From: Candidatus Kuenenia stuttgartensis
GTDB lineage: Bacteria > Planctomycetota > Brocadiia > Brocadiales > Brocadiaceae
Length of the DNA: 32,000 bases
Reading direction: 5' to 3'
Assembly (NCBI RefSeq): GCF_900232105.1
Contig: NZ_LT934425.1
Coordinates: 2,280,001 to 2,312,000 of the forward strand
The notes under the pieces are model-generated. The model saw only the letters and a program-made list of their open reading frames with translations, ran no database searches and was not told the origin of the DNA. Positions within the stretch are counted from its first letter, which is position 1. Each line of letters begins with the position of its first letter. Both the position numbers and the translations under genes were made by a program. Below are positions 4,686-29,915 of the stretch, piece after piece.

Positions 4686-6473
4686 TCATAGTCCGAAGTA
4701 ATAATCTCTCATTTTGTTTGCCATAAGTTTCCTTCTCAAAGCCAGAAAGTCTTGATAGTCGTCTATGGTCATTTCCATCAACTCTGTCGGAACACAATTC
4801 ACTTTTAAATTGTCCAAAAGTTCCTGCTCTGTCGAAATTCCACTTACTTGTCTGTTGTTCTCAATCATTTGCGTTTTGAGTAAGTCGAAATAGTCTTTAG
4901 GAGGCTTGTTGCCCACCTTAATGTTTATTTCTGACTGCATATACACATAGTTTGCAATCTGATTGTATTTGCTTCGGTCAAGCCCGTTCTTCTTCAAATA
5001 GTCTTTTGGAAACAAATGGTGTATGTCACCACGAAGCGAAATCAAGTCGCTAACTAAAACGTCTTTTGATAAAAATCCTTTGTCGTTAGCTTTTACTTGT
5101 GAGGCAAGAAATACGTGGAAATATGGACTACTTGCAACAGAAGTGTCCAAACTTTGTGGCAAAGAAGCGTTCCAAAATGCTTCTGAAAGTTCGGCTTCTT
5201 CTCGTTCGTTCAAAATCTCGTTAAATGGTTTGTGTTCAATCTGCTTAATGTCGAAGTCAAACGCACTTTCTGGTGAACCTGAATACCGACCTGTCAGAAT
5301 TGAATAAACCAACCAACGTCTTGCATAACTCTCAATGTCAACGGAACTTACTCCAAGGTCTTTCAGTTTAAGGTAAACTATGTAAGCAAAATTTATGGCG
5401 TTTTGTGAACGGATTAGTTTAGGTGAAATAAAGCCGGCTGATTTTACAATCATTAAAAACCTTTTGAAATTGGTTTCATTGATAAAGTTGGTTACTCCGT
5501 TTTTAAGTGTCGCAAATGATTGTTGAGCTATTTCCGCTTCGTATGTTCTTGTTTCAAAATTTCTTCCTGATAACAAACTAACTAAGTCGGAAAGTCTGCC
5601 CCTGTTGAATTGTGAAGTAAAAGTAACACGAATTAAGTCATTATAGTCGGGGTCGTAAAGGTCTTCATTTTCAGTTTTGAGCCATTGCATTTTTTGAAAG
5701 AAGTCTGTTTTTGCAAACTCCTTGTCATTATCTACTATGTGTTTGTAAAAGTCTGGAGCAATGGCAAGGTGGCAGAAATAGTCAATCGCTTTTCTTAGTT
5801 CATTTCCACCATTTTCGGTGTCTGCTGCAATCTTACTCATTGCAAAGTCTGCTTGACTTAAAACAACGCCTTTTGAGTTGATGCGGATAAAAATTTCCGT
5901 AACGGTTTCAATGTCTAAGTCAGGCGAAAGTTCGATTAAACCAATTTGCTTTTTCGGTATGTTAATAAGGTTTGAGAAAGCGTTACGAACGTGCTTTTTG
6001 TCAACATCAGTATTTAGTTCAAAATAATTGTCCGCAATCTCAAATAGGTCTCCGTTTATTGCTTCTGAAATATCGTGTAGCCAGGTTTTGTCTTTAAGAA
6101 TGGCTGGATTTTGAACTTCAAACCGTTCTTCAATTGGATTGAACGCTATTTTGATTTTTACTTGTTGATATGTCTTGTTGATTATATATTGTCCAAGAAT
6201 TGCAGCTGTTAATGCTGTTACTCGTTGTTGTCCATCAATTAAAACCTTTTTACCTTCACTTAAACTTCCGTCTTTCAGCCTTACGTTAGGGTTTCTCCAA
6301 GCGATAACATAGCCAACAGGATAACCTTGATATAAACTGTCCATTAAGTCGCGGACTTTTGAACTGTCCCAAACAAATGGTCTTTGAATTTCCGGAATTG
6401 CAATTTCTCCTGAATTTACCCAAGCTAAAATTGTCTCGATTAAGTGTTGGTTAACTGAATATTTCTGCATCAA
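4686..6473 (-). CDS. DUF262 + DUF1524 (GmrSD-family) nuclease, probable modification-dependent restriction enzyme
   Basis: 595 aa. The N-terminal ParB-like DUF262 signatures are [11 protein letters not shown] and [12 protein letters not shown]. The C-terminal His-Me-finger-like region is [12 protein letters not shown]...[19 protein letters not shown], as in the DUF1524 nuclease end of GmrSD/BrxU-type enzymes. Confidence 0.85.
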
Positions 6474-14686: not shown

Positions 14687-16655
14687 AGCGGGTTTCCACA
14701 AATTCAAAATAATATGTAGTCGCAGAATAAATGGCCTATTTATTAATACAAATCCTTTATAACCCTATAAATACTGACTTGACAAAATATTTTATTAATG
14801 ATAGTGTAGTCAAAGAATATTGGGACTACATTATGCACCTTACTTATAGCGATTCTAAATACAAAGGGAAAACCTATAAATCTTACTCTATTGCCGAATC
14901 CTACAGGGATGGCAAAAAGGTCAGAAAAAGAATACTTTGGCCCATCGGGAAACTTTCCGATATTCAAGCCGAGCAAATCAAACTGATATGTAAAACAGTT
15001 GAAAACACAGATCAATTGCAGACTCAGCTCAAAGACGTTGCAGTCCTGGAAAGCAGGGCATATCTCGATATAGCCGTTGTTAATGAGTTGTGGAACCAGT
15101 GGCAGCTTGATCAGGCTTTTGACTACGATGTCACTGCAGGCGCCCTTCCTACCAATATGATTGCAAAGATACTGACTATTAACAGGTGCACCGATCCGTG
15201 TTCTCATTATTCCATTCCTCATTGGGCGAAAAAGAGCGCGCTGGAGGACATTCTTAAAATTGATCTTTCAGGCCTAAATGACGATAAAATCTATTATGAA
15301 TTAGATAAAATACACAAAAACAAAATATCTATAGAGAACCACCTTTTTAACCAAACCTTCTGGAAACGTCCGGAATCCTATAAATTTATCAACTACGACC
15401 TAACTACTTCCTACTTTGTGGGATATAACTGTGATCTATCGGCATTTGGCAAGGGCAAAATAGAGTGTCATGGCAGGCGGCAGGTCTTACTGGGTGTTCT
15501 TATCAACTCTGAGGGATATCCTTTCAAATGGGATGTATTCCCCGGGAACACCGCTGAGGTAAAAACCCTCAAACAGAATATCAATGCCTGTAAAACCAGA
15601 TTCAAATTGACTGATAAAAACGTCACCCTTGTATTTGACAGAGGCATAATCTCTGAGGACAATGCCAATTTGATAGAAGAAGCCAAACTCAAATACATCT
15701 CGGCATTGGATAGAAATCAGATACCCTCTTGCGGTGTCAGTTTAAAGTCTCTTAATGGGTTATCCATAGAAGATAAGGACGCCTCCGATATACCTATCCC
15801 GCAAGGGTTTTTAAACTATGATGATGAATTATACTACCATGACAATGGCGTCATAGGAAACAAGCGTTTTATTACCGGTTTTAATCCCACTTTATTTATA
15901 GAAGACCGCAATAATAGAGACGAGAAAATAACCTTTTTTAAGGATTATCTCAAAGAAGAGAATAAAAACCTTAAAAATGCCCAAAGAGACCGGCAATATG
16001 ACGCAACAAAGAGCCGCATTGTAGATGAGCTGAAAAGGTTAAAGATTCATAAATATTTCGAAGACCCTGTTCTGACGTCCATCACCGTTACCCATAGACT
16101 GAAAAACGGGCAGGTCAAATCCGTCAAAAGTTTCAAAATAGAAATCAAGCTGTTAACTGATGTTATAGCCGCAGATAGATTGTTGGATGGCGTATGTGTT
16201 TTTATCACTAACCATACAGAACGGGAAGATGGAGGTGCGTTTAAAGCAAAACCCCAATCTATAGTTAGAGCCTATCGGGACAAGACAAAAATAGAAGATG
16301 TCTTTAAAAATGTAAAATCGTTCTTAAAAATCAGGCCCTTCTTTGTCAATACCGAGGCACATGTTAAAGCCGTCTATACTATCTGCATCCTGGCATATTT
16401 TATAAACCGTTATCTATCAAACCAACGAAAGGCAATAGGAGAAAAAGATTTTTTAAACTCAAAGGAACTCTATGCGCCGTTCAAAGATATAGATATCGCC
16501 ACTCTTGAGGCTAAAAATACCGGTGAAACCTTAAAGAAAGCCGTGAAACTTCCCGCCGTCACACAAATGCTATTGGAAAAACTTGGAATGTCCAATGTTG
16601 TTTTCGGCCAGTAATTAAAAGACTTCCAAAAGACATGTAGTCGCAGAATCAATGT
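14687..16655 (+). mobile_element. Insertion sequence, IS4 family (IS1634-like); boundaries approximate
   Basis: It has a single large DDE transposase ORF. The flanking host ORF fragments stop or open at 14684-14686 and 16656-16658. I could not identify terminal inverted repeats. Instead, a ~40-nt imperfect direct repeat (ttccacaaa..atgtagtcgcagaataaatg / ttccaaaag..atgtagtcgcagaatcaatg) sits on both sides of the transposase ORF. Confidence 0.6.
14731..16614 (+). CDS. DDE transposase, IS4 family (IS1634 group-like)
   Basis: 627 aa. It has VFDRGIISEDN (second catalytic D context) and a C-terminal YRDKTKIEDVFKNVK. The latter fits the IS4 Y-x2-(R/K)-x3-E-x6-K signature. The size is typical of IS1634-group transposases. 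Confidence 0.8.
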   Translation: MAYLLIQILYNPINTDLTKYFINDSVVKEYWDYIMHLTYSDSKYKGKTYKSYSIAESYRDGKKVRKRILWPIGKLSDIQAEQIKLICKTVENTDQLQTQLKDVAVLESRAYLDIAVVNELWNQWQLDQAFDYDVTAGALPTNMIAKILTINRCTDPCSHYSIPHWAKKSALEDILKIDLSGLNDDKIYYELDKIHKNKISIENHLFNQTFWKRPESYKFINYDLTTSYFVGYNCDLSAFGKGKIECHGRRQVLLGVLINSEGYPFKWDVFPGNTAEVKTLKQNINACKTRFKLTDKNVTLVFDRGIISEDNANLIEEAKLKYISALDRNQIPSCGVSLKSLNGLSIEDKDASDIPIPQGFLNYDDELYYHDNGVIGNKRFITGFNPTLFIEDRNNRDEKITFFKDYLKEENKNLKNAQRDRQYDATKSRIVDELKRLKIHKYFEDPVLTSITVTHRLKNGQVKSVKSFKIEIKLLTDVIAADRLLDGVCVFITNHTEREDGGAFKAKPQSIVRAYRDKTKIEDVFKNVKSFLKIRPFFVNTEAHVKAVYTICILAYFINRYLSNQRKAIGEKDFLNSKELYAPFKDIDIATLEAKNTGETLKKAVKLPAVTQMLLEKLGMSNVVFGQ

Positions 16656-17349: not shown

Positions 17350-17753
17350 AATATGAATTTTAAATTGTTAATTGGGTGGCACGGACAAACCTTGTTTGTC
17401 CGTGCCACCCTCTATCGATACTTAAATACTATATTAAATTTTTCTAAAAACAGATGCTTTTGACTATATCAGGAGGCTTACGTGTATTGATACCTGGATT
17501 GTATATTAAATTTTAGAAAAATAGATACTTTTGGCTATAAACAATTAGTAGAGACACGACATGTCGTGTCTCTACGTGACTCATGCTTCCCTGTCTGCGT
17601 ACGTTTCCGAAGGTAGCCAGACCGTCCCGGTCTGGGCGAGTCGCCTGTCTGCGTGCCGGGACGTATAGGCAAGGCCGCTTGTGTATTAAATATCACAAGC
17701 AGGATGCTTGTGTTACATTGTGCAGATAGTTACAAAAAATCGGGAATGCGCCC
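17350..17753. repeat. MITE family 1, copy lacking the left terminal repeat
   Basis: 17585-17753 is near-identical to the reverse complement of 26518-26686, including the right terminal repeat ttacaaaaaatcgggaatgcgccc. It contains the gggtggcacggacaaac..gtttgtccgtgccaccc hairpin (17374-17410), the GTAG hairpin 17548-17575, and an internal tandem duplication of the tattaaatttt..aaaaa.agat block. The left end is degenerate. Confidence 0.7.
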
Positions 17754-17776
17754 GGGAAATATGCTATAGTAGCCGC

Positions 17777-18280
17777 ATGAACGAAGAACATTCACCTATG
17801 AAATTGCTTATGAAAAGATTGCAGCATAATGAAAGTGAAGTGGTGCGCCAAGCCCTTGAAGAAATCGGCAGATCCGGAAAGGGGAATCGCGAGGCCATAA
17901 AAATGCTTCAGGATTTTTTAAAGGGAGAGCGGCGAATGCCTCTCCGCGTTTTGGCGGTTCAAACTATTGCGAAAATAAAGGAGTCCCCTCAATCTTCCAC
18001 AAAAGAATTCAAAAAACCGAACGTCTTTCAGTGTCCGGGGGCGGAGAAGATAAAAAGGGTTGAAATTTTGGAGGTAACGTGTCCCCACTGCCACCAGGAA
18101 GGTACGGCGTCGGTAGCCGGTTTTGAATATGAATTCGCATGCGAGAGCTGCGGGGGCATGATAAAGCGAGATATCCCTGAAAGCTGTATCGAGAAGTGTC
18201 CTATGGGAAGCGAGTGTGTTGGTGAAGGGCGTTATCAAAAATATTTACACGGCAGAAAAAAAGCTACTGGAGATACATAG
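17777..18280 (+). CDS. HEAT-repeat-like N-terminus + Cys-rich zinc-ribbon-like C-terminus protein, paralog A
   Basis: The probable start is MNEEHSPMKLL; the longer ORF-track start lies inside the MITE. VVRQALEEIGRSGKGNREAIKMLQDFLKGERRMPLRVLAVQTIAKI resembles PBS-lyase/HEAT-like repeats. The C-terminus has CPHC..CESC..CIEKC..C. It is about 95% identical to the 28830..29324 product. Confidence 0.6.
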   Translation: MNEEHSPMKLLMKRLQHNESEVVRQALEEIGRSGKGNREAIKMLQDFLKGERRMPLRVLAVQTIAKIKESPQSSTKEFKKPNVFQCPGAEKIKRVEILEVTCPHCHQEGTASVAGFEYEFACESCGGMIKRDIPESCIEKCPMGSECVGEGRYQKYLHGRKKATGDT

Positions 18281-18485
18281 CGCAGCAAAAAGTCGCAACC
18301 AAAAATGTAGAGACGCACGGCCGTGCGTCTCTACTAATCAATGCCTTACTGTTGCTTCGACAAGCTCCGCACGAGTATGCATTTTGAAAAACGAGCATTA
18401 AAAACAAGAAGTTGATGGATAGTAGTACAAAGAAAAACTTACAAAAAAAGAGGTTTTTACAGGGCAATATTATAAACCCATTTAC

Positions 18486-18557: not shown

Positions 18558-18775
18558 TGCTGGGGTCATTTAGAGAAGCAAGGATGGTTTATATTGATTT
18601 ATGTTGCAGGTATAGGTTGTATCATAAAAGTTTAAGGGAAATTGGTCAGGAGCTGGGAGGTTTAACCGTTGGAGGGATGAGTCAGGTAAGAAAGAGATTA
18701 AAAGAAAAACTGCAGAAAGACGATACCTTAAGGTTCATGTATAACCGGTGCAATAAGGCGCTCTCCGACGAATAG
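18536..18775 (+). pseudogene. C-terminal DnaA-C-like HTH fragment of a transposase-associated protein
   Basis: ARMVYIDLCCRYRLYHKSLREIGQELGGLTVGGMSQVRKRLKEKLQKDD follows the Bac_DnaA_C pattern (..yL.r..t..sl.eIG..fGg..hs.V..a.k.....). As I recall, this domain occurs at the C-terminus of COG1943-type Y1 (REP-associated/IS200-like) transposase relatives. Only ~70 residues are present and no catalytic domain. Confidence 0.45.
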
Positions 18776-18906
18776 TTATTTATACAGGTAAAAGGATTTA
18801 CCTGAATATTAATCAATTTCAACATATCCTTGTAATTAAAACTGTTAAATGTATAATCGTTTCAGGAAAAAATACATTGTTGTCAATAGGTTAGGTTTGA
18901 CCCCAT
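18710..18906. repeat. Direct repeat, copy 1 (tail of HTH fragment plus downstream sequence ending in tttgaccccat)
   Basis: ctgcagaaagacgataccttaaggttcatgtataacc...caataggttaggtttgaccccat recurs at 19904-20090 with few substitutions and small indels. Confidence 0.85.
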
Positions 18907-19241: not shown

Positions 19242-19439
19242 ATGTCGGTCAAAGAAATGATAAAGAAAGAGATTGATAAACTTCCGGAAAATCTTCTTCC
19301 AGAGGTCTTTGATTTCATTCAGTTTTTAGAAAGCAAAAGAGAAAGAATCGTGATTGCAAGAGCCTCTCAGGACTTGTCCACTGCATCATTTCAAAAAATA
19401 TGGGACAATGAAGAGGATGCAGTTTATGACAGTCTATAA
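19242..19439 (+). CDS. DUF2281-like antitoxin
   Basis: 65 aa. The KEIDKLPENLLPEVFDFIQFLESK pattern is typical of DUF2281 antitoxins. It overlaps the downstream PemK/MazF gene by 14 nt. A good SD (aaggaggg) lies upstream. Confidence 0.65.
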   Translation: MSVKEMIKKEIDKLPENLLPEVFDFIQFLESKRERIVIARASQDLSTASFQKIWDNEEDAVYDSL

Positions 19440-19767
19440 TAGAGGAGATGTCGTTCTTGTCCCTTTTCCATTCAGCAACCAAACTATCATAAAGAAACGT
19501 CCGGCGGTAATTATTAGTTCTGATGTTTATAACAATACATCCTCTGACATTGTTATTATGGCAATTACGGGAAAAACAGGCAATCTTACCATAGGAGAAT
19601 GTTTAATAGAAGATTGGCAGAGTGCTGGTTTGTTAAAGCCTTCTTCTATCAAACCAGCCATATCAACTATTGAACAAAGCTTAGTTTTAAAGAAACTTGG
19701 CAAACTTTCGCCTAAAGACCTCATTTTAATGGAAAATGTACTAAAAGAATTTTTAGATTTGATATAA
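19426..19767 (+). CDS. PemK/MazF-family type II toxin (endoribonuclease)
   Basis: From Met at 19426: MTVYNRGDVVLVPFPFSNQTIIKKRPAVIISSDVYNNTSSDIVIMAITG. This is the RGD(I/V)(V/W)..F.....KKRPA.V(I/V)S....IV..ITS/G signature of the PemK/MazF fold. The ORF-track start at 19354 is probably too long. Confidence 0.8.
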   Translation: MTVYNRGDVVLVPFPFSNQTIIKKRPAVIISSDVYNNTSSDIVIMAITGKTGNLTIGECLIEDWQSAGLLKPSSIKPAISTIEQSLVLKKLGKLSPKDLILMENVLKEFLDLI

Positions 19768-19903
19768 AGAAGATTTGCTTATTGACTTAGCTCACCCCTG
19801 GTTTTTACAATTACTTATTAACTTAGTTTGTCCAACACATAGGAAGGGGTCAAATCTTTACCATTGACAAATATGTAATTGATAAAGATTTGACCCCATC
19901 CCT

Positions 19904-20090
19904 CTGCAGAAAGACGATACCTTAAGGTTCATGTATAACCAGTGCAGTAATGCGCTCTCCGACGAATAGTTATTTATACAGGTAAAAGGATTTACCTGAA
20001 TATTAATCAATTTCAACATATCCTTATAATTAAAACTGTAATCATTTTAGGGAAAAAACATTCTTGTCAATAGGTTAGGTTTGACCCCAT
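19904..20090. repeat. Direct repeat, copy 2
   Basis: It matches 18710-18906. Together the two copies bracket the icd'-antitoxin-toxin module. Confidence 0.85.
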
Positions 20091-20108
20091 TGACTCCCCT
20101 TGCCAATA

Positions 20109-20133
20109 GGTTAGGTTAGGTTAGGTTAGGTTT
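20109..20133. repeat. Pentanucleotide microsatellite (ggtta)x5
   Basis: aataggttaggttaggttaggttaggtttgacccc. The homologous sites at 18888 and 20072 carry only two units (aataggttaggtttgacccc). Confidence 0.9.
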
Positions 20134-20180
20134 GACCCCATTGACTTTGACTACACCCTAACTAAAAAAGGATTGATTCC

Positions 20181-21941
20181 ATGAAACAGCTTACCAAATT
20201 GTCAAATATTGATCAGTTCTTACCCAGATGGACGAAAAGAGTTATCGCAGAAACGGGTGGGCGAGACCCTCTTGGTTTATCAAGGGTTTCGGACATGATT
20301 GTCGAATTCCTTTTAACAGGTATTACTACTCAAACGAATAGAGCAAGATACTATTCATTTTACTGCTGGAATATCTGGAATATCTGGCATATTCATCTAA
20401 CGGAAAAGCCTCAGAAGTATAAAGATTTTGTTGACAGTTTTCGTAGAAGAGAGGCAGTACTTGCCATGTCCACATATGCCAACAATAGTAATACCTCACC
20501 TGTTGGCATTAAAGCCGCCCGTCCAATATTGGAGAAAGGATTCCAGAGAGGTGAGATGGACAGTAATTTTCGTGTTCTACCTTCGAATGCGCTGGGTGGC
20601 TATGGTCAGTATTACGGAGGAAGCCTGTATCAGCTTGGGTTGACGCGTCGCATTGAAAATGGAATTGACCATTTGAATAAAGGAATGGGAGAAGCATTGG
20701 CAGAAGCATTTCATTTATCTATTCATGAGACTCCTTACATCCAAAAGGAACTTTTTCGAAAAACAAAAATTCCACTTGTTGACTTTGATGGGTCTAAAAA
20801 ATTGCTGACTCTCGATGCCATCATGAAAAAATCTGGAGTCATAGAACGGAAACTTCTCATAGATCTGTTTTTCGGCTTCAATGGCACTACCATTTGTGAA
20901 AGCACCTTACTCAGAAGACACACCTTGGGTCAAATACTCCACATTCTGTGTGAATATGAAAGACATGATTTATATCTAAACCTAGATAGCATCGATGTCA
21001 TTTTTGTCTATGCGCCTTCTTACTTCGATGTCATTTGGTCTGAGGAGGATGATAAAACTATTCCATATAAATGTCCTGAAAAGTTTAGACGTTGTCACTC
21101 TCTTTGGAGGCAATTCTGTCTCCAACAATATTTTACAAATGCATTAGAAAACATACTATTTGCTGTTTTGGAAATAATAGGTAATGAATCAGCGGGTCTA
21201 ACTATAGAAAATATTGTTTTACGATTGATGGAGACCACATTTCTCAAAGTTTTACGAGAGAAAGCAGGAAAGGATTGCTATAGACCAAGAGAAATCCTTA
21301 AAGCTTTTAACATCGAAGACATTCCGACTCATGAAGCATCATACGATTTGCAACAATTGCTTATTCCAACTGCTAAAAATAGCGAATTTGATATCCTGAG
21401 GATATCTGAGGAAGACACAGGAAGTGTTACGGCTAAGGCAATGCTACTTTTAGCAGTTCTTTATGGAAAGTGGAGAGGAATTCAGGATGAAGAAGGCATG
21501 TGTTATGTACATGAACATGCTGGTAACGGCCTTTGGTTTTGGACGTTTATGCCAATCATTGATAAATGGCTGGACAAGAATACAAAGTGGGATGAAACAC
21601 TAGAAAGAATTATAAGATGTTTCATTGTTGATCAACATGATAGAATTATGTACGAGAAAAAGAGATTGGAAAGTTGCTGGTTCAGAACTGATGGAAATCG
21701 ACTATTTAAAGAACAGGAATACTCACCTAAATTTCGTGCTAATCGACATCTTCAAGCAGTTAATATTATGCGTGACTTATGTCTTATAGAATCTGACGAT
21801 GAAGGATACCTTTCGATTACCTCGAAAGGCAAAACAATTCTGAACAAAATACTGAACGAACATGAATGTGTAATAAGAAAGACAATCGATTCAATTTGCA
21901 TGAGATACTTGATAGTAGCTCCTATGATCATGCGCTCATAG
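20181..21941 (+). CDS. Cassette ORF1: 586-aa protein of unknown function with winged-helix-like C-terminus
   Basis: An AAGGA lies 8 nt upstream of the ATG. I found no nucleotide-binding or catalytic motif. The N-terminal block AETGGRDPLGLSRVSDMIVEFLLTGITTQTNRARYYSFYCW looks conserved but I cannot place it. The C-terminal IMRDLCLIESDDEGYLSITSKGKTIL has the usual wHTH wing pattern (gLie..d..y.lT.kG). Confidence 0.6.
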   Translation: MKQLTKLSNIDQFLPRWTKRVIAETGGRDPLGLSRVSDMIVEFLLTGITTQTNRARYYSFYCWNIWNIWHIHLTEKPQKYKDFVDSFRRREAVLAMSTYANNSNTSPVGIKAARPILEKGFQRGEMDSNFRVLPSNALGGYGQYYGGSLYQLGLTRRIENGIDHLNKGMGEALAEAFHLSIHETPYIQKELFRKTKIPLVDFDGSKKLLTLDAIMKKSGVIERKLLIDLFFGFNGTTICESTLLRRHTLGQILHILCEYERHDLYLNLDSIDVIFVYAPSYFDVIWSEEDDKTIPYKCPEKFRRCHSLWRQFCLQQYFTNALENILFAVLEIIGNESAGLTIENIVLRLMETTFLKVLREKAGKDCYRPREILKAFNIEDIPTHEASYDLQQLLIPTAKNSEFDILRISEEDTGSVTAKAMLLLAVLYGKWRGIQDEEGMCYVHEHAGNGLWFWTFMPIIDKWLDKNTKWDETLERIIRCFIVDQHDRIMYEKKRLESCWFRTDGNRLFKEQEYSPKFRANRHLQAVNIMRDLCLIESDDEGYLSITSKGKTILNKILNEHECVIRKTIDSICMRYLIVAPMIMRS

Positions 21942-23329
21942 CTACGTATACTTTTGACCCAGAGTTCTTTGAGGAGTACTGTCTTGAAAAACTTAAAAGT
22001 CTAAGTGGAAATGGTAATATTTCTGTTCTCGTAGATAGGGGTGAATACGAAAAAGTCATAAAAGGAACAGACTCATCAATGCCACAAAAGGCAAATCTTC
22101 GTTATCTCTTACATCCAGTTTACGTTCTAGGTGCATTTCATTCAAAAATATTTCTTTTTGTAAATCAAGACCATGGCTTGCTTGTAATCGGAAGTGCAAA
22201 TTTTACCCGTCCAGGCCTTGCATCAAATGCAGAGTTGGTGTCATGCTACGAATATGAAGTTGAGGAAAAGGAACAATTTAAGTATTTGTTTATGTCTGCA
22301 TTTCACTATTTCAGACAAATAAGTAACTATTCTCTAAGTCAAACACTCGAATCCAATATTCGGGTAGTAGAACGGGAAATTGCCTGGTTAACTGAAGGGT
22401 ATAACAATGAAATAAACGAATCAAATCCAGTACTACTACATAACATTGATACCCCACTATGGGAACAGCTAAAGGCGAAAATTGAACAACCCGTTGATTC
22501 TATTTCTGTGCTTTCCAGATATTTCGACCCAACACCTACCCTTCTTGATAGAGTGGATCGAGATTTTAAACCGAAAAAAATTAAAATCTTTACTCAAAAC
22601 GGAATCACCACATTGACCTCACAATGGTTGAAACATCCGCTAGTGAGGAAGAGTAAAGTTGAGATATATCTATGTACATATAAAGATGAAGAACATAGCC
22701 AACCCCTTCATGCAAAAGCTATTGCTATCGAGAAAGATAAAAATATCGTATTTGCTTTTGGTAGTGCCAATTTTACTACACCAGCGATGTTGCGTACCAT
22801 GAACGATGGTAATGCTGAGGTAATCTTGTGTTTCCATGGCTTAAGTAAATCGAGTATAAGCCCAGAAAGGTTTTTTGATCCAGACAATACTGCCATTCTG
22901 CTTAATCATGAAAAACAATTGAATTTTACGCAGGAGGAGGACAAAAAATCTCCATCCAATAGATATGATATATTACTTAAAGAAGCCTTGCTTGAGGGTG
23001 AACGGTTGTGCCTGATCGCTGATATTTCTGAAAAATTTAGACAATACCCTCTCATTGCTGAAATCAGTTCTCCAAACAAACCTACGCAACAAGTTAAGTT
23101 GCAGCAGTTAGATGAAGGATACTACGACGCAGACCTTTCAGATGAAATGCTGAAGAATTTTGGTGATCAATCATCCGTTGTTCAAATAAAAGCTTTGATG
23201 AACGATGAATTGATTGCACTAAGCAATCCTCTTCTATTAACCCAATCTACAAGATATTCAAACCGGTGGAAGTGTGCGTCGCGAGCGACAAATAAAGGAA
23301 GCAATGCAAAGCACAGACAAGTTCCATGA
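21866..23329 (+). CDS. Cassette ORF2: PLD-family phosphodiesterase/nuclease with two HxK...GSxN motifs
   Basis: Motif 1 is GAFHSKIFLFVNQDHGLLVIGSANFTRPGL. Motif 2 is PLHAKAIAIEKDKNIVFAFGSANFTTPAM. The N-terminal HALIATYTFDPEFFEEY is typical of the PLD-like nuclease fold. Its last ~30 codons (after 23240) appear to be out-of-frame read-through (see findings). The start overlaps ORF1 by 76 nt, or 46 nt if TTG at 21896 is used. Confidence 0.8.
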   Translation: MCNKKDNRFNLHEILDSSSYDHALIATYTFDPEFFEEYCLEKLKSLSGNGNISVLVDRGEYEKVIKGTDSSMPQKANLRYLLHPVYVLGAFHSKIFLFVNQDHGLLVIGSANFTRPGLASNAELVSCYEYEVEEKEQFKYLFMSAFHYFRQISNYSLSQTLESNIRVVEREIAWLTEGYNNEINESNPVLLHNIDTPLWEQLKAKIEQPVDSISVLSRYFDPTPTLLDRVDRDFKPKKIKIFTQNGITTLTSQWLKHPLVRKSKVEIYLCTYKDEEHSQPLHAKAIAIEKDKNIVFAFGSANFTTPAMLRTMNDGNAEVILCFHGLSKSSISPERFFDPDNTAILLNHEKQLNFTQEEDKKSPSNRYDILLKEALLEGERLCLIADISEKFRQYPLIAEISSPNKPTQQVKLQQLDEGYYDADLSDEMLKNFGDQSSVVQIKALMNDELIALSNPLLLTQSTRYSNRWKCASRATNKGSNAKHRQVP

Positions 23330-24911
23330 AGCGCTCAAGGAGATGAACCACTCTGGTGATTTAGATCGCCAGATACAGTTCCTGATCTATTGTGATATTC
23401 CAGTAATTGAAGCAGAACAACCATTTGCACGTAGGGCAAGACCACCTTTGGATCGGAACAAGGAAATGCGAAACATTGGAGAACGGAATCTCAAACACTT
23501 TGTAGACCTTCACGAAGCAACCATTGACTTCATAAATAGGCATTTTGGAAAGCTCAAAAAACATATAAAAAATGGAACTATAAAAGGCATACCAAACTTT
23601 ATGCATATCTTTCTTGCCATTTGTTGGATTCTTGAGAACCAGATTGAAAGGGTAATTCAGGGGTTTAAGTCAAAATTAACACCGATGACTTCAAAAGAGT
23701 GGTATGACTACCGTGAACAACTTGATGAATATTTTAAATACTTCAAGGAAGTTATGGATTGTCTTTGGGGTGATTATCTAACGACCATGCTTAAACATCA
23801 CACCCGCCGGGAAATCAGGGAAAAACTCGATCCTGATTTCCACTATTTGAAGGATGTCTGTTCGCAGATGTTGGGATTTAGGTCAAGAATTGAGGTCTTG
23901 CGAAAATCTCAATTAAAGGTCCAACGTGAAAGTGGCAGGGCTTTAGTCCTTCCAGAGTATTTTGAATCCATTCTCAAAGAGGAAAAATGGCACATTTATT
24001 GTGAACATATAAACTCGTCCATTGTTCAAATCAGAGCTTTAGTTGAAAATAACTCGATTGTACCTAAAAATCAGGTTCTATCAACCAATTTTCAAGAGAT
24101 TAAAACTGGTAGAAGTATAGGATGTGAATATCAAATAAAGGAGGCGCAGCAAAGTACATTGCAGTGCATAGAAGCAATCAAAGAATTATACAACTCCAGC
24201 AATTCCAAGGCACTGAAACAGTTCCTGACTTTCTGTGATATTCCAGTAATCAAAAATATACAACCAATATTAGCATACAGCCCAAGACCTTCTTCTGGGT
24301 TGAGCAAGGAAACATGGAGACTTGGAGAATGGAATCTTAGACACTTCATAAATCATCACAAAGCGACACTTCACTTTATAGACAAACATTTTAGAAAGTT
24401 AGAGATACATATTAAAGATATACCTAAAGAGAACATACCAAACTTTATGCATATCTTCCTTGCCATTGGTTGGATTTTGAGGAACCAAATCGAAATGGCA
24501 ATTCACTGCCTTAAGACAAAAATAACTCCCATGTCTTTAGAAGAATGGCAAGAATACCTTAAACAACTGGATATATATTTTAAAAAGTTTAGACTACTCA
24601 TGGATTGTCTTTGGTATAAATATCTTTCTATCATGTTAAAATATTATGCACATGAGACAATACGGGAAAGGTTCGAACCAGATTTCCAATTTCTAAAAGA
24701 CATTTGTTCGCATATGCTTGGATTTCGACCAAGAATTGATATTCTATGTAAGTCTCATTTAAAAATTCAGAGATCAGACGGAACAATAATACTTCCTGAA
24801 TATTTCTCTTCTGTTTTCAATGAAAAGGATTGGAAATACTACTCCAATAATATAAAAAAGATTCATCGCGCTATTTTTAAACACTTTTTCAAAAAGAAAC
24901 ACAAATTATGA
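23274..24911 (+). CDS. Cassette ORF3: tandem-duplicated ~282-residue helical domain protein, unknown function (probably the C-terminal part of ORF2)
   Basis: The two halves align residue for residue (QIKEAMQST../QIKEAQQST.., IPNFMHIFLAICWILENQIE/IPNFMHIFLAIGWILRNQIE, MDCLWGDYL/MDCLWYKYL, LGFRSRIEVL/LGFRPRIDIL, LPEYFES/LPEYFSS). The listed start is a GTG. The frame is open from 23241, and homology to repeat 2 begins upstream of that GTG. Confidence 0.7.
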   Translation: MRRERQIKEAMQSTDKFHEALKEMNHSGDLDRQIQFLIYCDIPVIEAEQPFARRARPPLDRNKEMRNIGERNLKHFVDLHEATIDFINRHFGKLKKHIKNGTIKGIPNFMHIFLAICWILENQIERVIQGFKSKLTPMTSKEWYDYREQLDEYFKYFKEVMDCLWGDYLTTMLKHHTRREIREKLDPDFHYLKDVCSQMLGFRSRIEVLRKSQLKVQRESGRALVLPEYFESILKEEKWHIYCEHINSSIVQIRALVENNSIVPKNQVLSTNFQEIKTGRSIGCEYQIKEAQQSTLQCIEAIKELYNSSNSKALKQFLTFCDIPVIKNIQPILAYSPRPSSGLSKETWRLGEWNLRHFINHHKATLHFIDKHFRKLEIHIKDIPKENIPNFMHIFLAIGWILRNQIEMAIHCLKTKITPMSLEEWQEYLKQLDIYFKKFRLLMDCLWYKYLSIMLKYYAHETIRERFEPDFQFLKDICSHMLGFRPRIDILCKSHLKIQRSDGTIILPEYFSSVFNEKDWKYYSNNIKKIHRAIFKHFFKKKHKL

Positions 24912-26095
24912 AAAGAGAAAAAAGGAAAGAAAAACTTAAGCACAAAAAAGACTTGGCTGCTAATAAAAAGTGGGAACAATTTGACAGAGTATTTGAAAGC
25001 ATAAGCATAAAAAAAGATTTTTCAAAGTTGCAAAGGAGCTTGAAGGAAAAAGTAATATCACGACGTTATCCATCTTTTCGTATAGAGTTATCTGATGAAT
25101 TAAAAAATGATTCCGAATCGATTTTGGTTGCGAAGGAAGTAGATGACTGTATTAAGCAATTAACTTTTGTACTAAAGCCCTTTAACACAACCATTAAAAT
25201 AAATGATTATTTCTCAGTTGCGGTTTCCGTTGCCCATTGTTTTAAAAATTGCGAAGAACTCTCATCCTTAGAAAATATAAAAACTGCTACGAGTTTGTTG
25301 TTGTCAGAGGAAAACATAGCTGCAGTAATAAAATGTTTGTATCAAAATATAGATGCAGTACTCATAGAACATAATAAAATGGACAGATTTTTTTTTTGGG
25401 CGTCTATAGAATGTAACACTTTACCAAACGGAAAGCCTATCAGGTTGATTCGAATACATAGACAACAGTGTATGTCTAAAAGTTTTTTTGTTGATGGACA
25501 GCAAAGAATTGCATATAAATGCGGTCAGTGTTTTATGCCTTATGGAATAAAATGGGCTGGCTTGGACAACAAAAATGTTGGGTTAACTGGCTTAGAAAAG
25601 AACATTCCTGTATACATTCAATCTCATGCGTTGGAAAGGTTATACGAAAGAATAGATTGTTTTGAAAACTCAAAAAGTCTTATTTACGATTATTTGTGGT
25701 GTTCCATCTTAAATGCAAAAGTTGTTAAAAGTACTAATGGAAAATATCTTATCGAATATTGGTTTAATTGTCACAAACTGGGTTATTTGGTAACAACGAT
25801 AAACGATGGAGTTGCTATAGTAAGAACATTTCTCTTTATCACAATGGATGGAACACCAGAAGGACTGTTATTGCACAAAAAACTCGGTATCAGAAGAGAT
25901 GATAAAGAATACTTACATCTCGACAAACTAAGAACCTACCTTATGACTGATATTCAAGAAGACACTGAATTACGTAATGTTTTTGAAGAATGTGGGTGTG
26001 GGCATTTATTTAAGGTTGTTAAGGAAGATGCGGTAATATGCCGAACGACTGGAGATGCTAAAGACATTCGTAAATACTTAAATCTAGGTAGTTGA
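24908..26095 (+). CDS. Cassette ORF4: 395-aa protein of unknown function, Lys-rich N-terminus
   Basis: The ATGA start/stop overlap with ORF3 indicates translational coupling. The N-terminus is MKREKRKEKLKHKKDLAANKK. The central/C-terminal segment PVYIQSHALERLYERID...NGKYLIEYWFNCHKLGYLVTTINDGVAIVRTFLFIT has an HAxxRxxxR-plus-beta-strand pattern reminiscent of DUF4258/BECR-fold toxins. That link is a weak inference. Confidence 0.6.
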   Translation: MKREKRKEKLKHKKDLAANKKWEQFDRVFESISIKKDFSKLQRSLKEKVISRRYPSFRIELSDELKNDSESILVAKEVDDCIKQLTFVLKPFNTTIKINDYFSVAVSVAHCFKNCEELSSLENIKTATSLLLSEENIAAVIKCLYQNIDAVLIEHNKMDRFFFWASIECNTLPNGKPIRLIRIHRQQCMSKSFFVDGQQRIAYKCGQCFMPYGIKWAGLDNKNVGLTGLEKNIPVYIQSHALERLYERIDCFENSKSLIYDYLWCSILNAKVVKSTNGKYLIEYWFNCHKLGYLVTTINDGVAIVRTFLFITMDGTPEGLLLHKKLGIRRDDKEYLHLDKLRTYLMTDIQEDTELRNVFEECGCGHLFKVVKEDAVICRTTGDAKDIRKYLNLGS

Positions 26096-26097
26096 AA

Positions 26098-26280
26098 ATG
26101 AAAAATCAAAAAAGCAACAAAAGATACAATGCGATACTGTTTGATATAGTTGGTACTTTGCTAACAAGACAGTCCGCAGATTTTCAAGTGTTCGCGGGGC
26201 GTTGTCAGGAAACCGGAATCACAATAGATTTAGATACTGCACGGAGAGGCTGGAAACAATCTGAGAGGTGGATTTTCTGA
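26098..26280 (+). pseudogene. HAD-superfamily hydrolase N-terminal fragment
   Basis: MKNQKSNKRYNAILFDIVGTLL resembles HAD motif I (hhhFDxDGTL), but the second Asp is replaced by Val. The ORF stops after 60 codons, whereas HAD enzymes are ~200+ aa. Downstream sequence to ~26450 has only short broken frames. Confidence 0.4.
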
Positions 26281-26517
26281 AGGAAATGGCTGGCGAACCC
26301 AGGATGCCTGACCACGAATTTTTCAGATGACCTGATTCCATTGCCTTGCGAACGGCGTTTGGCGAGAAGTCAGATGAAGAGATATGGAAAATGGTTTCTC
26401 TTATTCTCCCGCTTCAAGGCCCAAGACAGTCATGAGAAGTAATCGCTGGAAAATTTCACAAATCGCCCTAATTATTAAGTTGCGTTTAATGATGGTAGAG
26501 GATTAACATTTCGATTC

Positions 26518-26939
26518 GGGTGCATTCCCGATTTTTTGTAACTATCTGCACAATGTAACACAAGTATCCTGCATGTGATATTTAATACACAAGCTGCCTG
26601 CCTATACGTCCCGGCACGCAGACAGGCGACTCGCCCAGACCGGGACGGTCTGGCTACCTTCGGAAACGTACGCAGACAGGGAAGCATCGTAGAGACAGGT
26701 TTCAAACCTGTCTCTACAATGACCTATATTTTTATGCCCCACTAATTGTTTATAGCCAATAGTATCTATTTTTCTAAAATTTAATATATACTCCAGGTAT
26801 CAATAGATGGGTGGCACAGGCTTTTTGCCTGTGCGGAATACAGGCAGGATGCCTGTACCACCCTTGCAATAAATTCTATTATTCATCTTCCGAAAACCTT
26901 ATTTTTTGACTATATTTACAAAAAATCGGGAATGCACCC
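26518..26939. mobile_element. MITE family 1, complete 422-bp copy with 9-bp target-site duplication
   Basis: Ends are gggtgcattcccgattttttgtaa / ttacaaaaaatcgggaatgcaccc. It is flanked by direct tttcgattc at 26509-26517 and 26940-26948. The interior carries the GTAG hairpin gtagagacaggtttcaaacctgtctctac (26689-26717) and a gggtggcacagg..cctgtaccaccc palindrome. Confidence 0.85.
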
Positions 26940-27042: not shown

Positions 27043-28545
27043 ATGAATAAATCACCCTTCATCTCCAAAACAAAATACATCGCCGGTATTCAGTGCCATA
27101 AACTCCTCTGGCATTACTACAACGCAAAGGAAGAGTTCCAGGAAGTAGATGCCGGCACGCAATCGCTATTCGACCAAGGACATTTAGTCGGTGAATACGC
27201 AAAAAAACGCTATCCAACCGGAATAGAAGTGTCTGAAGATATCATCGCTTTTGAAAAGGTCATTGAGCAATCTAAACAGTTAATCTCAAAACGCCTACCG
27301 CTTTTTGAAGCCGCATTTCGTTATAAAAACGCTTACGCCCGCGCAGATATTCTAAATCCGGCAGGAAGAAAAGCCTGGGAAATTATAGAAGTGAAAAGTT
27401 CAACCCAGGTGAAAGATATTCATCTTTACGACCTTTCTTTGCAGTGGTATACATATAAAGGAACCGGACTTGAGATCAAACGATGTTATCTTCTGCATAT
27501 TAATAATGAATATGTCCGCAAAGGAGAAATCGATCCGGGAAAGTTATTTGCCCTTGAAGATATTACATCGGATGTGAAAATATTACTTCCAGAAGTTGAA
27601 GGACGATTGGAAAAAATGATCAAAGTAATTGCAGCAAAAAAATATCCCAAAATTGAAATCGGTTTACATTGTAACGACCCTTACGAATGTCCGCTGCAAG
27701 AAAAATGCTTTGATTATTTGCCAAGACACAATCCGCTGACGTTATATTACTTCAAAGGAGAGAAAGCCTTTTCATTGATAAATGATGGCGTCACCGATAT
27801 TCTAAAGTTCGATGATTCCATCACACTATCCGCTAAACAAAAGATACAGATACAGAGTCTTCGGTCAAAAAGAGAGTATGTAAATAAAGAGGGAATACAG
27901 TCATTCTTAAATAAACTTGCTTATCCTTTATATTATCTTGATTTTGAGACTATCGGAACTGCAATCCCGCTGTTTGACCATGTAAAACCGTATCAACAGA
28001 TTCCATTTCAGTTCTCGCTTCATATTCAAGCATCACCAAAGAGTAAACTTGAGCACATCGGTTATTTAGCAGAAGGCAAAGACGACCCCCGTCCGGAATT
28101 ATTAAAGCTATTGAAAAAACACCTTGGCATGAAAGGATCGATTGTTACATACAACGCATCCTTTGAAAAAGACAAACTCAACAAAGCGTGCGAAGCATTT
28201 CCGGCTTACCGGGAGTGGAATCGGAAGATACAAGCCCGAATAGTTGATCTGTTGGATCCTTTCAAAGCCTTCTACTACTATAACTACAAACAAGAGGGAA
28301 GCGCATCGATCAAATCTGTCTTACCTGTACTAACGGGAAAAGGATATGATGGGATGGAGATCGCCGATGGTGGAACGGCGAGCAATGAATATCTGCGAGT
28401 GACGTATGGAGAAGGTGTTACCGAAAAAGAGCGAAAGACAGTTCGGAAATATCTTGAAGAGTATTGTGAGTTGGATACGATGGCGATGGTGAAAATTGTT
28501 GAAAAGTTGATAAAGATTTCCAATGGCAAAGTAGATTATTCGTAA
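27043..28545 (+). CDS. DUF2779-like protein: N-terminal PD-(D/E)XK (RecB/Cas4-like) nuclease domain plus C-terminal DFET-containing domain
   Basis: 500 aa. ISKTKYIAGIQCHKLLWHYY matches the usual DUF2779 opening (SKS.f..g.qC.k.LW). ARADIL...WEIIEVKSST supplies D...ExK. The C-terminal half has YYLDFETIGTAIPLF...PFQFSLH. Confidence 0.65.
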   Translation: MNKSPFISKTKYIAGIQCHKLLWHYYNAKEEFQEVDAGTQSLFDQGHLVGEYAKKRYPTGIEVSEDIIAFEKVIEQSKQLISKRLPLFEAAFRYKNAYARADILNPAGRKAWEIIEVKSSTQVKDIHLYDLSLQWYTYKGTGLEIKRCYLLHINNEYVRKGEIDPGKLFALEDITSDVKILLPEVEGRLEKMIKVIAAKKYPKIEIGLHCNDPYECPLQEKCFDYLPRHNPLTLYYFKGEKAFSLINDGVTDILKFDDSITLSAKQKIQIQSLRSKREYVNKEGIQSFLNKLAYPLYYLDFETIGTAIPLFDHVKPYQQIPFQFSLHIQASPKSKLEHIGYLAEGKDDPRPELLKLLKKHLGMKGSIVTYNASFEKDKLNKACEAFPAYREWNRKIQARIVDLLDPFKAFYYYNYKQEGSASIKSVLPVLTGKGYDGMEIADGGTASNEYLRVTYGEGVTEKERKTVRKYLEEYCELDTMAMVKIVEKLIKISNGKVDYS

Positions 28546-28627: not shown

Positions 28628-28806
28628 CCCATAAGGTGTGGGTAAAATCCGTTAGACAGTAGGGTGGATCAAGCGACAGCGAATCAACCGTTTCATTTAT
28701 TATTGGTGGATTTGCTGTGAAAAAGCCCACCCTACACGAAATGAGAGAAAAGAGTCTTGGCGAGCATGGTATATTAACCCTGTCAGGGTTGTTTCTTTCA
28801 TTTTGT
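28628..28806. repeat. Composite palindromic repeat, family 2, copy B
   Basis: It is collinear with 2296-2512: cccataaggtg..gtagggtggatcaagcgacagcgaatcaacc..cccaccctac..ggtatattaaccctgtcagggttgttt. It lies directly upstream of paralog B. Confidence 0.8.
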
Positions 28807-28829
28807 GGGAAATATGCCATAGTAGCTGC

Positions 28830-29324
28830 ATGAACGAAGAACATTCACCTATGAAATTGCTTATGCAAAGATTGCAGCATAATGAAAGCGAAGTGGTGCG
28901 TCAAGCCCTTGAAGAAATTGGCAGATCCGGAAAGGGGAATCGCGAGGCCATAAAAATGCTTCAGGATTTTTTAAAGGGAGAGCGGCGAATGCCTCTCCGC
29001 GTTTTGGCGGTTCAAACTATTGCAAAAATAAAGGAGTCCCCTCAATCTTCCGCAAAAGAATTCAAGAAACCGAACGTCTTTCAGTGTCCGGGGGCGGAGA
29101 AGATAAAAAGGGTGGAAATTTTGGAGGTAACGTGTCCCTACTGCCATCAGAAAGGTACGGCGTCGGTGGCCGGTTTTGAATATGAATTCGAATGCGAGAG
29201 CTGCGGGGGAATGATACAGCGTGATATCCCTGAAAGCTGTATTGAGAAATGTCCCGTGGGAAGCGAGTGTGTCGGTGAAGGGCGTTATCAAAAATATTTA
29301 CAAGGCAGAAAGAAAGCTACTTGA
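28830..29324 (+). CDS. HEAT-repeat-like + zinc-ribbon-like protein, paralog B
   Basis: I count 8 substitutions over ~164 aligned residues against the 17777..18280 product. Nucleotide similarity runs from ~28806 to ~29350. Confidence 0.6.
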   Translation: MNEEHSPMKLLMQRLQHNESEVVRQALEEIGRSGKGNREAIKMLQDFLKGERRMPLRVLAVQTIAKIKESPQSSAKEFKKPNVFQCPGAEKIKRVEILEVTCPYCHQKGTASVAGFEYEFECESCGGMIQRDIPESCIEKCPVGSECVGEGRYQKYLQGRKKAT

Positions 29325-29915
29325 AATACATAGCGCAGCCTTTGGCCGCAACCAAATTCGAAATACGAATATCGAATCTATTAAAATAAGGAATTTAGAA
29401 ACCGCAAATACACGCAAATGGACGCAAATATTTTTAACGGGAGTCACAGAAATCTGGCAATCTAGTCTCTGACCACTGCCTACTGCTTCTGGCGACCGGC
29501 TTTCGCGTTCATTGGCGTCCATTAGCGGTTATCTTTCTAAACAACCTCCAGGGAATTTCGAATTACGGGGAAAATAGGAATAATAAGAGAAGTGTCCCTA
29601 TATCCTATTTCCCCCCCTATATCCCTTGCTCATGGATCGAGGATGCTTCCCCTCAGGTGGCACGGCCAACTTGAGCAGAATACAACGTGATCGCGCGATA
29701 TAGCAGACGAGTCCGGCACAGGGGTTGTAGCCTTGTCGTTGATCGCAGTTGTTATGCGATTAAGACGTTGAATTAATATTTACTGAATGGCATATAGTAG
29801 ATTTGCAGGAAATTTTAAAATTGGCTAGACAAGGTATAAAATAAAGGCGAAATAGCGCTTGCCAATGATCCTAAAATAATATATATTCATAGTATATATT
29901 CAAAGGAGGTGTTTT

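Follow-up and report, generated by a model that had tools for sequence, protein, structure and literature searches.

A one-nucleotide break in a PLD-like nuclease gene of Candidatus Kuenenia stuttgartiensis

Are two overlapping reading frames in the Candidatus Kuenenia stuttgartiensis genome two genes, or one gene that has been broken? The question is raised by a locus within a 32,000-nt window (contig NZ_LT934425.1, positions 2,280,001 to 2,312,000), whose numbering is used throughout. The upstream open reading frame (ORF), ORF2 (21866-23329, plus strand, as are all features of this gene and its cassette given below), encodes 487 aa, the nuclease half of a phospholipase D (PLD)-like protein. 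The downstream one, ORF3, is shifted by +1 against ORF2 and ends at 24911, starting either from GTG 23274 (545 aa) or, as usually annotated, from ATG 23304 (535 aa); it encodes two tandem helical domains. The original prediction, made from the sequence of the window, held that ORF2 and ORF3 are one gene cut by a single extra C in a run of C, and offered sequencing or assembly error, recent inactivation and programmed frameshifting as alternative causes. As judged from sequence comparison, the two ORFs are indeed halves of one 1014-codon gene split by one extra C. We put at roughly two in three the probability that the locus is a young pseudogene, in which a presumed anti-phage nuclease operon (ORF1-PLD-ORF4) would have been recently inactivated.

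The reading frame at the ORF2/ORF3 junction

At the junction the ORF2 frame gives the native reading ...SSVVQIKALMNDELIALSNPLLLT, followed by an unrelated 28-residue tail, QSTRYSNRWKCASRATNKGSNAKHRQVP, and TGA. This tail (23243-23329), which is a by-product of the frameshift, had a counterpart in no homologue, and the two closest relatives described below read the same DNA in the other frame. The ORF3 frame is closed by TAA at 23238-23240 and open from 23241, from where it reads PNLQDIQTGGSVRRERQIKEAMQST; upstream of and across the annotated start it reads P-NLQDIQTGGSVRRERQIKEAMQST. The junction codons in the ORF2 frame are TTA ACC CAA, the ancestral ones TTA ACC AAT. The same linker pattern recurs inside ORF3, where SSIVQIRALVENNSIVPKNQVLSTNFQEIKTGRSIGCEYQIKEAQQST begins at 24015 and 'cta tca acc aat' lies at 24078 with no break of frame. 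Coordinates and alignment bear out the description in the original prediction in full: when 23160-23330 was aligned with 24000-24170 by MAFFT, the only gap was one of 1 nt, A-CCC-A (23240-23244) against A-CC-A.

The DNA alignment with relatives places the inserted C in the CCC run at 23241-23243, between residues 459 and 460 of the gene restored by deleting one C. This virtual fusion has 1014 codons, zero internal stops and a junction that reads LLLTNLQDIQTGGSVR, bearing out the single ORF of about 1000 codons, with PLD nuclease and two helical copies, that removal of the C had been predicted to yield. Upstream of the break, the 459 codons that remain in frame (21866-23242) encode a Tdp1-like core and then a beta domain ending ...SNPLLLT. 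Downstream, the first 20 codons in the ORF3 frame (23244-23303, NLQDIQTGGSVRRERQIKEA) belong to the most conserved motif of the protein family and lie upstream of ATG 23304.

Homologues of the virtual fusion gave the same picture. The search returned 244 of them, the best 120 of which were all ~720-740 aa long and 38-51% identical at ~71% query cover, so that family members as a rule combine a PLD core and a single helical domain in one polypeptide. The virtual fusion was colinear with its homologues across the junction, with no residue gained or lost, whether 10 or 117 sequences were aligned, an agreement that chance would not produce. The junction cuts the most conserved motif of the family, SNxLLVTNLxDIxTGxxVRRERxIKEAQQS, whose residues recur in most of the 117 homologues (N460 in 112, L in 105, D in 103, R in 105, R in 95, E in 103, R474 in 116 and A479 in 117); S453 is invariant among them.

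The domains on either side of the break were recognizable from profiles and from a homologue's structure model. Both HKD motifs of ORF2 are intact (FHSK...GSANFT and LHAK...GSANFT), and ORF2 matched the Pfam families PLDc_2 (3.6e-18, in two stretches), Tyr-DNA_phospho (3.6e-5) and RE_NgoFVII. Its top PADLOC match was ZacB (2.6e-19), as matched also by its homologues (1e-17 to 4e-24). The AF2 model of P0001, the nearest of the distant homologues and 51% identical to the window protein, was of high quality (pLDDT 92.9, pTM 0.89). Two HKD lobes make up its residues 1-340; a beta domain (369-453) and a helical bundle (470-726) follow, joined by an extended linker (456-469). In Foldseek the catalytic part of this model matched Tdp1 (E 1e-10, probability 1.0, ~380-440 columns, target TM 0.5), and the ORF2 core is, by way of this modelled homologue, predicted to have the Tdp1-like two-lobed single-chain fold. 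Foldseek matches to the helical part of P0001 were designed helical repeats only. This helical domain is rare: an exhaustive phmmer search with ORF3 found it in 148 clusters among 1.84 billion representatives.

Two related anammox bacteria carry the uninterrupted gene. The search with the fused query did not return its own 90% cluster, in which ORF2 and ORF3 are grouped with the fused 1014- and 1031-aa relatives; these were reached through a search for homologues of ORF4, the last gene of the cassette, which yielded two proteins at 76-77% aa identity. The two loci, L020 (from ERR15087790) and L021 (from SRR22388352), share with the window a four-gene cassette (window 20158-26445; L020 499-6789; L021 94-6125) at ~93% nt identity. 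In both the PLD gene is unbroken and encodes both helical copies (L020, 1031 aa, 96.4% aa identity to the virtual fusion; L021, 1014 aa, 94.1%). Their junction reads GCA CTA AGC AAT CCT CTT CTA TTA ACC AAT CTA CAA, whereas the window is the same with ACC C AAT, so the comparison of orthologous loci that the original prediction called for came out on the side of a fused ancestor. Pairwise dN/dS among the three lineages (window, L020 and L021) was 0.27-0.69, indicating that the intact gene was under purifying selection. Each fused protein is known from one contig, and a contig scan of genomes with the fused protein found no relative, the window's species being apparently absent or masked there.

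As judged from assembled sequences, the inserted C was reproducible. The exact 535-aa ORF3 was present on 77 contigs (103 index blocks) and exact forms of ORF2 on 13, 106 and 18 contigs (NCBI, JGI, ENA, Logan and UniRef), and the same split was called on >100 independent contigs. Ten loci that we fetched, from metagenome-assembled genomes (MAGs), a JGI metagenome, an ENA assembly and four assemblies of SRA runs, were at least 99.8% identical to the window and all had CCC, with no variation in the length of the C run. A fused K. stuttgartiensis protein, sought as three start or single-nucleotide variants, was not found in a collection of 15 billion proteins. Because the split and the CCC recur in independent assemblies and the fused form is absent, the insertion is real; it occurs in every sampled Candidatus Kuenenia stuttgartiensis genome.

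Age of the break and explanations for it

In the recent history of the K. stuttgartiensis lineage, then, one C was inserted at 23241-23243 (CC to CCC) and broke a single nuclease gene in the linker that joins the beta domain to helical copy 1. Translated from its original start, the gene now yields 459 native residues and the 28-residue nonsense tail; the remaining 555 codons, in the +1 frame, would be made, if at all, only by re-initiation at GTG 23274 or ATG 23304. On the window branch only 13 codons of the N-terminal part and 6 of the ORF3 part have changed, and of the 108 columns that the family conserves at ≥90% the virtual PLD core with helical copy 1 keeps 106, as many as the median family member; these few changes and retained columns argue that the break is recent. 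The N-terminal part (ORF2) considered separately keeps 72 of 73 family-conserved columns. A test of selection on the K. stuttgartiensis branch was set aside, there being too few substitutions (13 and 6 codons).

A second lesion was found in some strains. In three assemblies (L039, L040 and L041) an insertion sequence (IS) of 1123 nt interrupts helical copy 2 of ORF3 at window position 24574-24578 (7276-8398 in L039). It encodes a 345-aa DDE_3/HTH transposase on the minus strand and is flanked by an apparent 5-nt target duplication. Since the IS disrupts ORF3 in three assemblies, ORF3 would seem to be dispensable. The loss of the ORF1 stop codon in the window's strain group, described below, is a further sign that the locus is either dispensable or in decay. 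Among the three causes named in the original prediction, recent inactivation is the best fit; its recency is upheld by the short branch and the 106 of 108 columns, and the loss of function is what we infer.

Several observations weigh against inactivation. Most strains have no further stop or indel in either half, and on so short a branch a gene too young to have decayed is inseparable from one still selected. ORF3 has a plausible start, with a Shine-Dalgarno-like AAGGAAG 4 nt upstream of ATG 23304, a spacing like that of other starts in the window, and this ATG is derived on the same short branch as the frameshift, as expected if it compensated for a split. The break, as placed by the AF2 model, also falls at a domain boundary, where the splitting of a protein is best tolerated.

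The same observations favour functional fission, under which the core (ORF2) and the tandem helical module (ORF3) would be made as two polypeptides that still assemble, the start of ORF3 being coupled to the end of ORF2, which it overlaps by 26 nt when translation begins at ATG 23304. We regard this as the chief rival explanation, though an unlikely one, and as slightly less likely still the fuller proposal that the split is a working two-subunit enzyme whose ORF3 was rescued by an ATG (from GTG) that arose on the insertion's own short branch. ORF3 is intact in most strains and keeps its conserved residues, but a product begun at ATG 23304 would be missing 20 residues of the family's best-conserved stretch, and with them the helix that carries R474 (116 of 117 homologues) and A479 (117 of 117), and the alternative GTG 23274 has a poorly spaced Shine-Dalgarno sequence. 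The disruption of ORF3 by the IS and the shortness of the branch, which precludes a test of selection, likewise tell against fission.

The start codon itself is open to a plainer reading. Codon 480 (23304-23306) differs between all three lineages (window ATG, L020 GTG, L021 GAA), making it one of only five codons with three states, and its column in the 117 homologues holds Q in 69, E in 16, R in 11, T in 8, K in 5 and M in 3. Because the column is variable and has three states in three close lineages, the change from V to M may be drift.

In-frame stops at domain boundaries of the same gene were also present in two other lineages, which counts in favour of fission: L017 has a TGA (400-402) directly after the invariant SN, ~5 codons upstream of the equivalent of the window's frameshift, and L019 a TAG (4800-4802) at the boundary between the PLD and beta domains. 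Both are single short metagenome contigs, however, and may be plain pseudogenes. Stand-alone helical-domain proteins were considered as further cases of recurrent fission and rejected, P0163 (locus L018) being a partial protein at a contig edge and P0126 coming from an error-ridden assembly. Separately, the metagenomic protein P0127 (274 aa) joins an ORF1-like N-terminus (MWTKRVAADTGGRDPLGLARV...) to the helical domain (...LLTFLSYCNIPL...), a chimera that by its sequence would imply a deletion or mis-assembly in another lineage.

If fission is true, the locus shows a defence protein divided at a domain boundary by a natural event that is very recent and can be dated, and its unsplit ancestor lives on in sister anammox bacteria for comparison. 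Should the halves cooperate, the fused and split cassettes would make a convenient natural test of domain fission; otherwise the locus shows the routine turnover of a defence gene.

Far less probable is a programmed +1 ribosomal frameshift, or transcriptional slippage, at ACC-C that would supply regulated amounts of the 1014-aa protein. If the ribosome moved by +1 after ACC, precisely the ancestral protein would result, and the 20 codons that separate the site from ATG 23304 are still pristine. Yet only a single position permits the exact fusion, as TAA shuts the +1 frame up to 23240; re-pairing of the P-site tRNA from ACC to CCC would involve a first-position mismatch; the A-site codon, CAA, is a sense codon, neither a stop nor obviously rare; and the upstream sequence CCTCTTCTATTA is not Shine-Dalgarno-like. 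The minimum free energy of the 121-nt region was no better than that of shuffled sequences (z = +0.46), and there was no Rfam match at the site. Three C in a row are too few for polymerase slippage or phase variation. Since the closest relatives are in frame, the frameshift is not a conserved feature, and with neither slippery site, stimulator nor RNA structure at the junction, this part of the original prediction finds no footing.

Last, a homopolymer error of sequencing or assembly in one record, with the true genome in frame, can be dismissed almost outright: one poor K. stuttgartiensis assembly (192,435-nt contig, WP_1697040xx) does have many artificial-looking frameshifts in these genes, P0126 among them, but the ORF2/ORF3 split is shared by more than 100 contigs from MAGs, JGI, ENA and per-run SRA (Logan) assemblies, all ten fetched loci have CCC, and the fused form of the K. 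stuttgartiensis sequence has not been recorded.

The duplicated helical domain, the cassette and its surroundings

The helical domain that the break separates from the nuclease is itself duplicated in tandem. The repeat unit spans ~282 codons at a spacing of 846 nt and begins in the last two beta strands (direct-repeat family D1). Unit 1 (23171-24014; aa 436-716 of the virtual fusion) comprises these two strands, the linker and helical copy 1, and contains the frameshift; unit 2 (24015-24911; aa 717-1014) comprises a diverged linker and helical copy 2. The units were 52% identical in aa and 67.5% in nt (dN/dS 0.31, dS ~1.05), and in a neighbour-joining tree copies 1 and 2 were sisters and mutual nearest relatives, with the longer branch leading to copy 2. 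Their sister relationship and the dS of ~1.05 indicate an old duplication that occurred in situ. Of 35 conserved columns copy 1 keeps 34 and copy 2 keeps 27; copy 2 has lost S453, R474, R596 and R617, and the near-invariant RRER has become GCEY.

The GC content of copy 2 and ORF4 (24015-24911 and 24001-26000) was markedly lower, 0.326-0.327, against 0.36-0.47 in the rest of the window. An origin of copy 2 from a foreign homologue, considered on account of this GC content, was ruled out, copy 1 being its nearest relative. No protein longer than 748 aa was found in the exhaustive phmmer search with ORF3, that is, no two-copy architecture elsewhere; two helical copies were seen only in the window's species and in L020 and L021, which fall in the same 90% cluster.

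Upstream of the nuclease gene lies ORF1 (20181-21941), whose N-terminus is ZacA-like. It matched PADLOC ZacA over residues 23-99 only (2e-5), and the partners at homologous loci did so over their N-terminal 70-80 residues (3.5e-11 to 2e-4). Pfam DUF6361 had no match in ORF1, and the partner in L016 scored 0.0047, below the curated cut-off. An ORF1-type gene lies directly upstream of the PLD gene in L011, L014-L016, L020 and L021, and among the distant homologues the arrangement is a conserved two-gene operon in which the gene for a 534-554-aa partner comes first and is either set off from the nuclease gene by a short gap or overlaps it by 4 nt.

The end of ORF1 varies among strains. Its stop, TGA at 21867-21869, is kept in L002, L004, L008, L009, L020 and L021, whereas the window and most strains have T at 21869 (TGT); with the stop lost, ORF1 runs 24 codons further, to 21941, and covers the start of ORF2. 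With A at 21869 the two genes form the canonical ATGA overlap; T also alters codon 2 of ORF2. Where the stop is kept, ORF1 encodes 559 or 562 aa (L002, L004, L008 and L009) or 558 aa (L020 and L021). ORF1 also shows a 9-nt indel polymorphism at 20366-20374 among K. stuttgartiensis assemblies (CTGGAATAT, one WNI unit of CWNIWNIWHI), which accounts for lengths of 586 and 583 aa.

ORF4 (24908-26095, 395 aa) starts within the stop of ORF3, with a 4-nt overlap (ATGA). It had no Pfam, PADLOC, PHROGs or NCBIfam match and has 87 uncharacterised homologues; it is 77-78% identical in aa in L020 and L021, and it belongs to the cassette only in loci of the Kuenenia type, not being found beside the distant homologues. 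At the corresponding boundary in L020 (~5230-5289), the PLD gene reads past ...KKKHKL for ~17 codons (YEKREKERNTQTQKRFGY) over the start of ORF4, which gives the protein its 1031 aa; the protein alignment suggests a small stop-codon change.

No helicase or P-loop ORF was found in the window between 19 and 28.5 kb, and by inspection ORF4 has no GxxxxGK[ST] motif. There was likewise no helicase within the operon in L011, L014, L016, L020 or L021, and the sole helicase-like gene in L015 belongs to an adjacent type I restriction-modification system.

The history of the cassette may have involved exchange between species. Divergence among the three lineages was mosaic (dS 0.02-0.11 in the PLD gene versus 0.27-0.40 in ORF4), the flanks of the L020 cassette are unlike those of the window, and the UDPGP gene flanking it downstream in L020 is closest to Ca. 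Brocadia MAGs (78-82% aa identity). Together these features suggest that the cassette moved horizontally and recombined among anammox bacteria.

The neighbourhood is consistent with a variable, defence-island-like region. Upstream of the cassette are an IS1634-family transposase (14731-16614; 1.9e-69) and a PemK/MazF-type toxin gene (19354-19767), which in related loci is preceded by a DUF2281-type antitoxin gene; a further neighbour is a DUF2779/Cas4-like protein (27043-28545). A cluster of repeats at the left edge of the cassette, just before ORF1 (19842-20146), includes two perfect 25-nt direct repeats, TAGGTTAGGTTTGACCCCATTGACT, at 20071 and 20122, part of a third copy at 19886 and a hairpin of 28 nt at 19842-19901; it may consist of operators or of small repeat elements. 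Immediately beyond the other end of the cassette, 41-nt inverted repeats (26518-26558 and 26899-26939), 340 nt apart, resemble a miniature inverted-repeat transposable element, and a palindrome at 26685-26721 with a perfect 18-nt stem drew spurious Rfam microRNA matches on both strands. Dispersed repeats of 87-95% identity lie on both sides of the cassette (17754-18286 and 28807-29339; 17485-17754 and 26517-26805, inverted; 18710-18906 and 19904-20090); they include paralogous HEAT-repeat ORFs (17708-18280 and 28803-29324), seen as secondary BLAST matches. A 62-aa ORF at 26092-26280 (...YNAILFDIVGTLLTRQ...) has the look, in translation, of the N-terminal fragment of a HAD-family hydrolase and is probably a gene remnant.

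Comparison with known systems

Both pieces are deposited as separate K. stuttgartiensis proteins, under the names 'phospholipase D-like domain-containing protein' (e.g. WP_099325304.1) and 'hypothetical protein', and they should be annotated as one frameshifted gene. A literature search with the UniProt and GenBank accessions of the locus found no mention of it.

The nearest known relative of the cassette is Azaca, which consists of ZacA (DUF6361), the PLD nuclease ZacB and the superfamily 2 helicase ZacC. As in Azaca, the nuclease gene, whose product best matches ZacB, follows a partner gene with a 4-nt overlap; the N-terminus of this partner matches ZacA weakly. Unlike Azaca, the ZacC helicase/NTPase is missing from the window and from every related locus examined; the nuclease has in addition a helical domain of ~260 aa, of which the Kuenenia clade has two copies; the partner, at 534-586 aa, exceeds the 396 positions of the ZacA model; and ORF4 is added to the Kuenenia-type cassette. 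ZacC is required for DNA cleavage by Azaca in vitro (bioRxiv 10.1101/2025.07.10.664194). Because ZacC is missing, we call the system Azaca-like rather than Azaca, and its role is presumably in defence. The locus documents a rare, uncharacterised relative of Azaca without a helicase, together with its young disruption in the anammox bacterium that has been studied best.

Among phosphodiesterases of the PLD family with two HKD motifs, Tdp1 is the closest comparison, through the structural match of P0001 and the two intact HxK motifs of ORF2. The Kuenenia nuclease differs from it in sequence (10-13% identity), in being encoded in a bacterial two-gene operon and in its extra beta and helical domains, and there is no evidence that it has Tdp1-type substrates. 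Similarly, a +1 shift would restore the full-length Kuenenia product as the +1 shift does in prfB, but the Kuenenia site has no re-pairing slippery codon, A-site stop or upstream Shine-Dalgarno sequence, and it is absent from relatives.

The break itself is an ordinary one and most resembles frameshift pseudogenes and split genes in other bacteria: a one-base indel lies in a short homopolymer, the ORF is continuous in close relatives, the pieces are annotated separately, and some K. stuttgartiensis strains carry further damage in the form of the IS. It differs from frameshift pseudogenes in that the lesion is present in every sampled K. stuttgartiensis genome, the two pieces are pristine apart from it, and a new, usable ATG has arisen in the downstream one.

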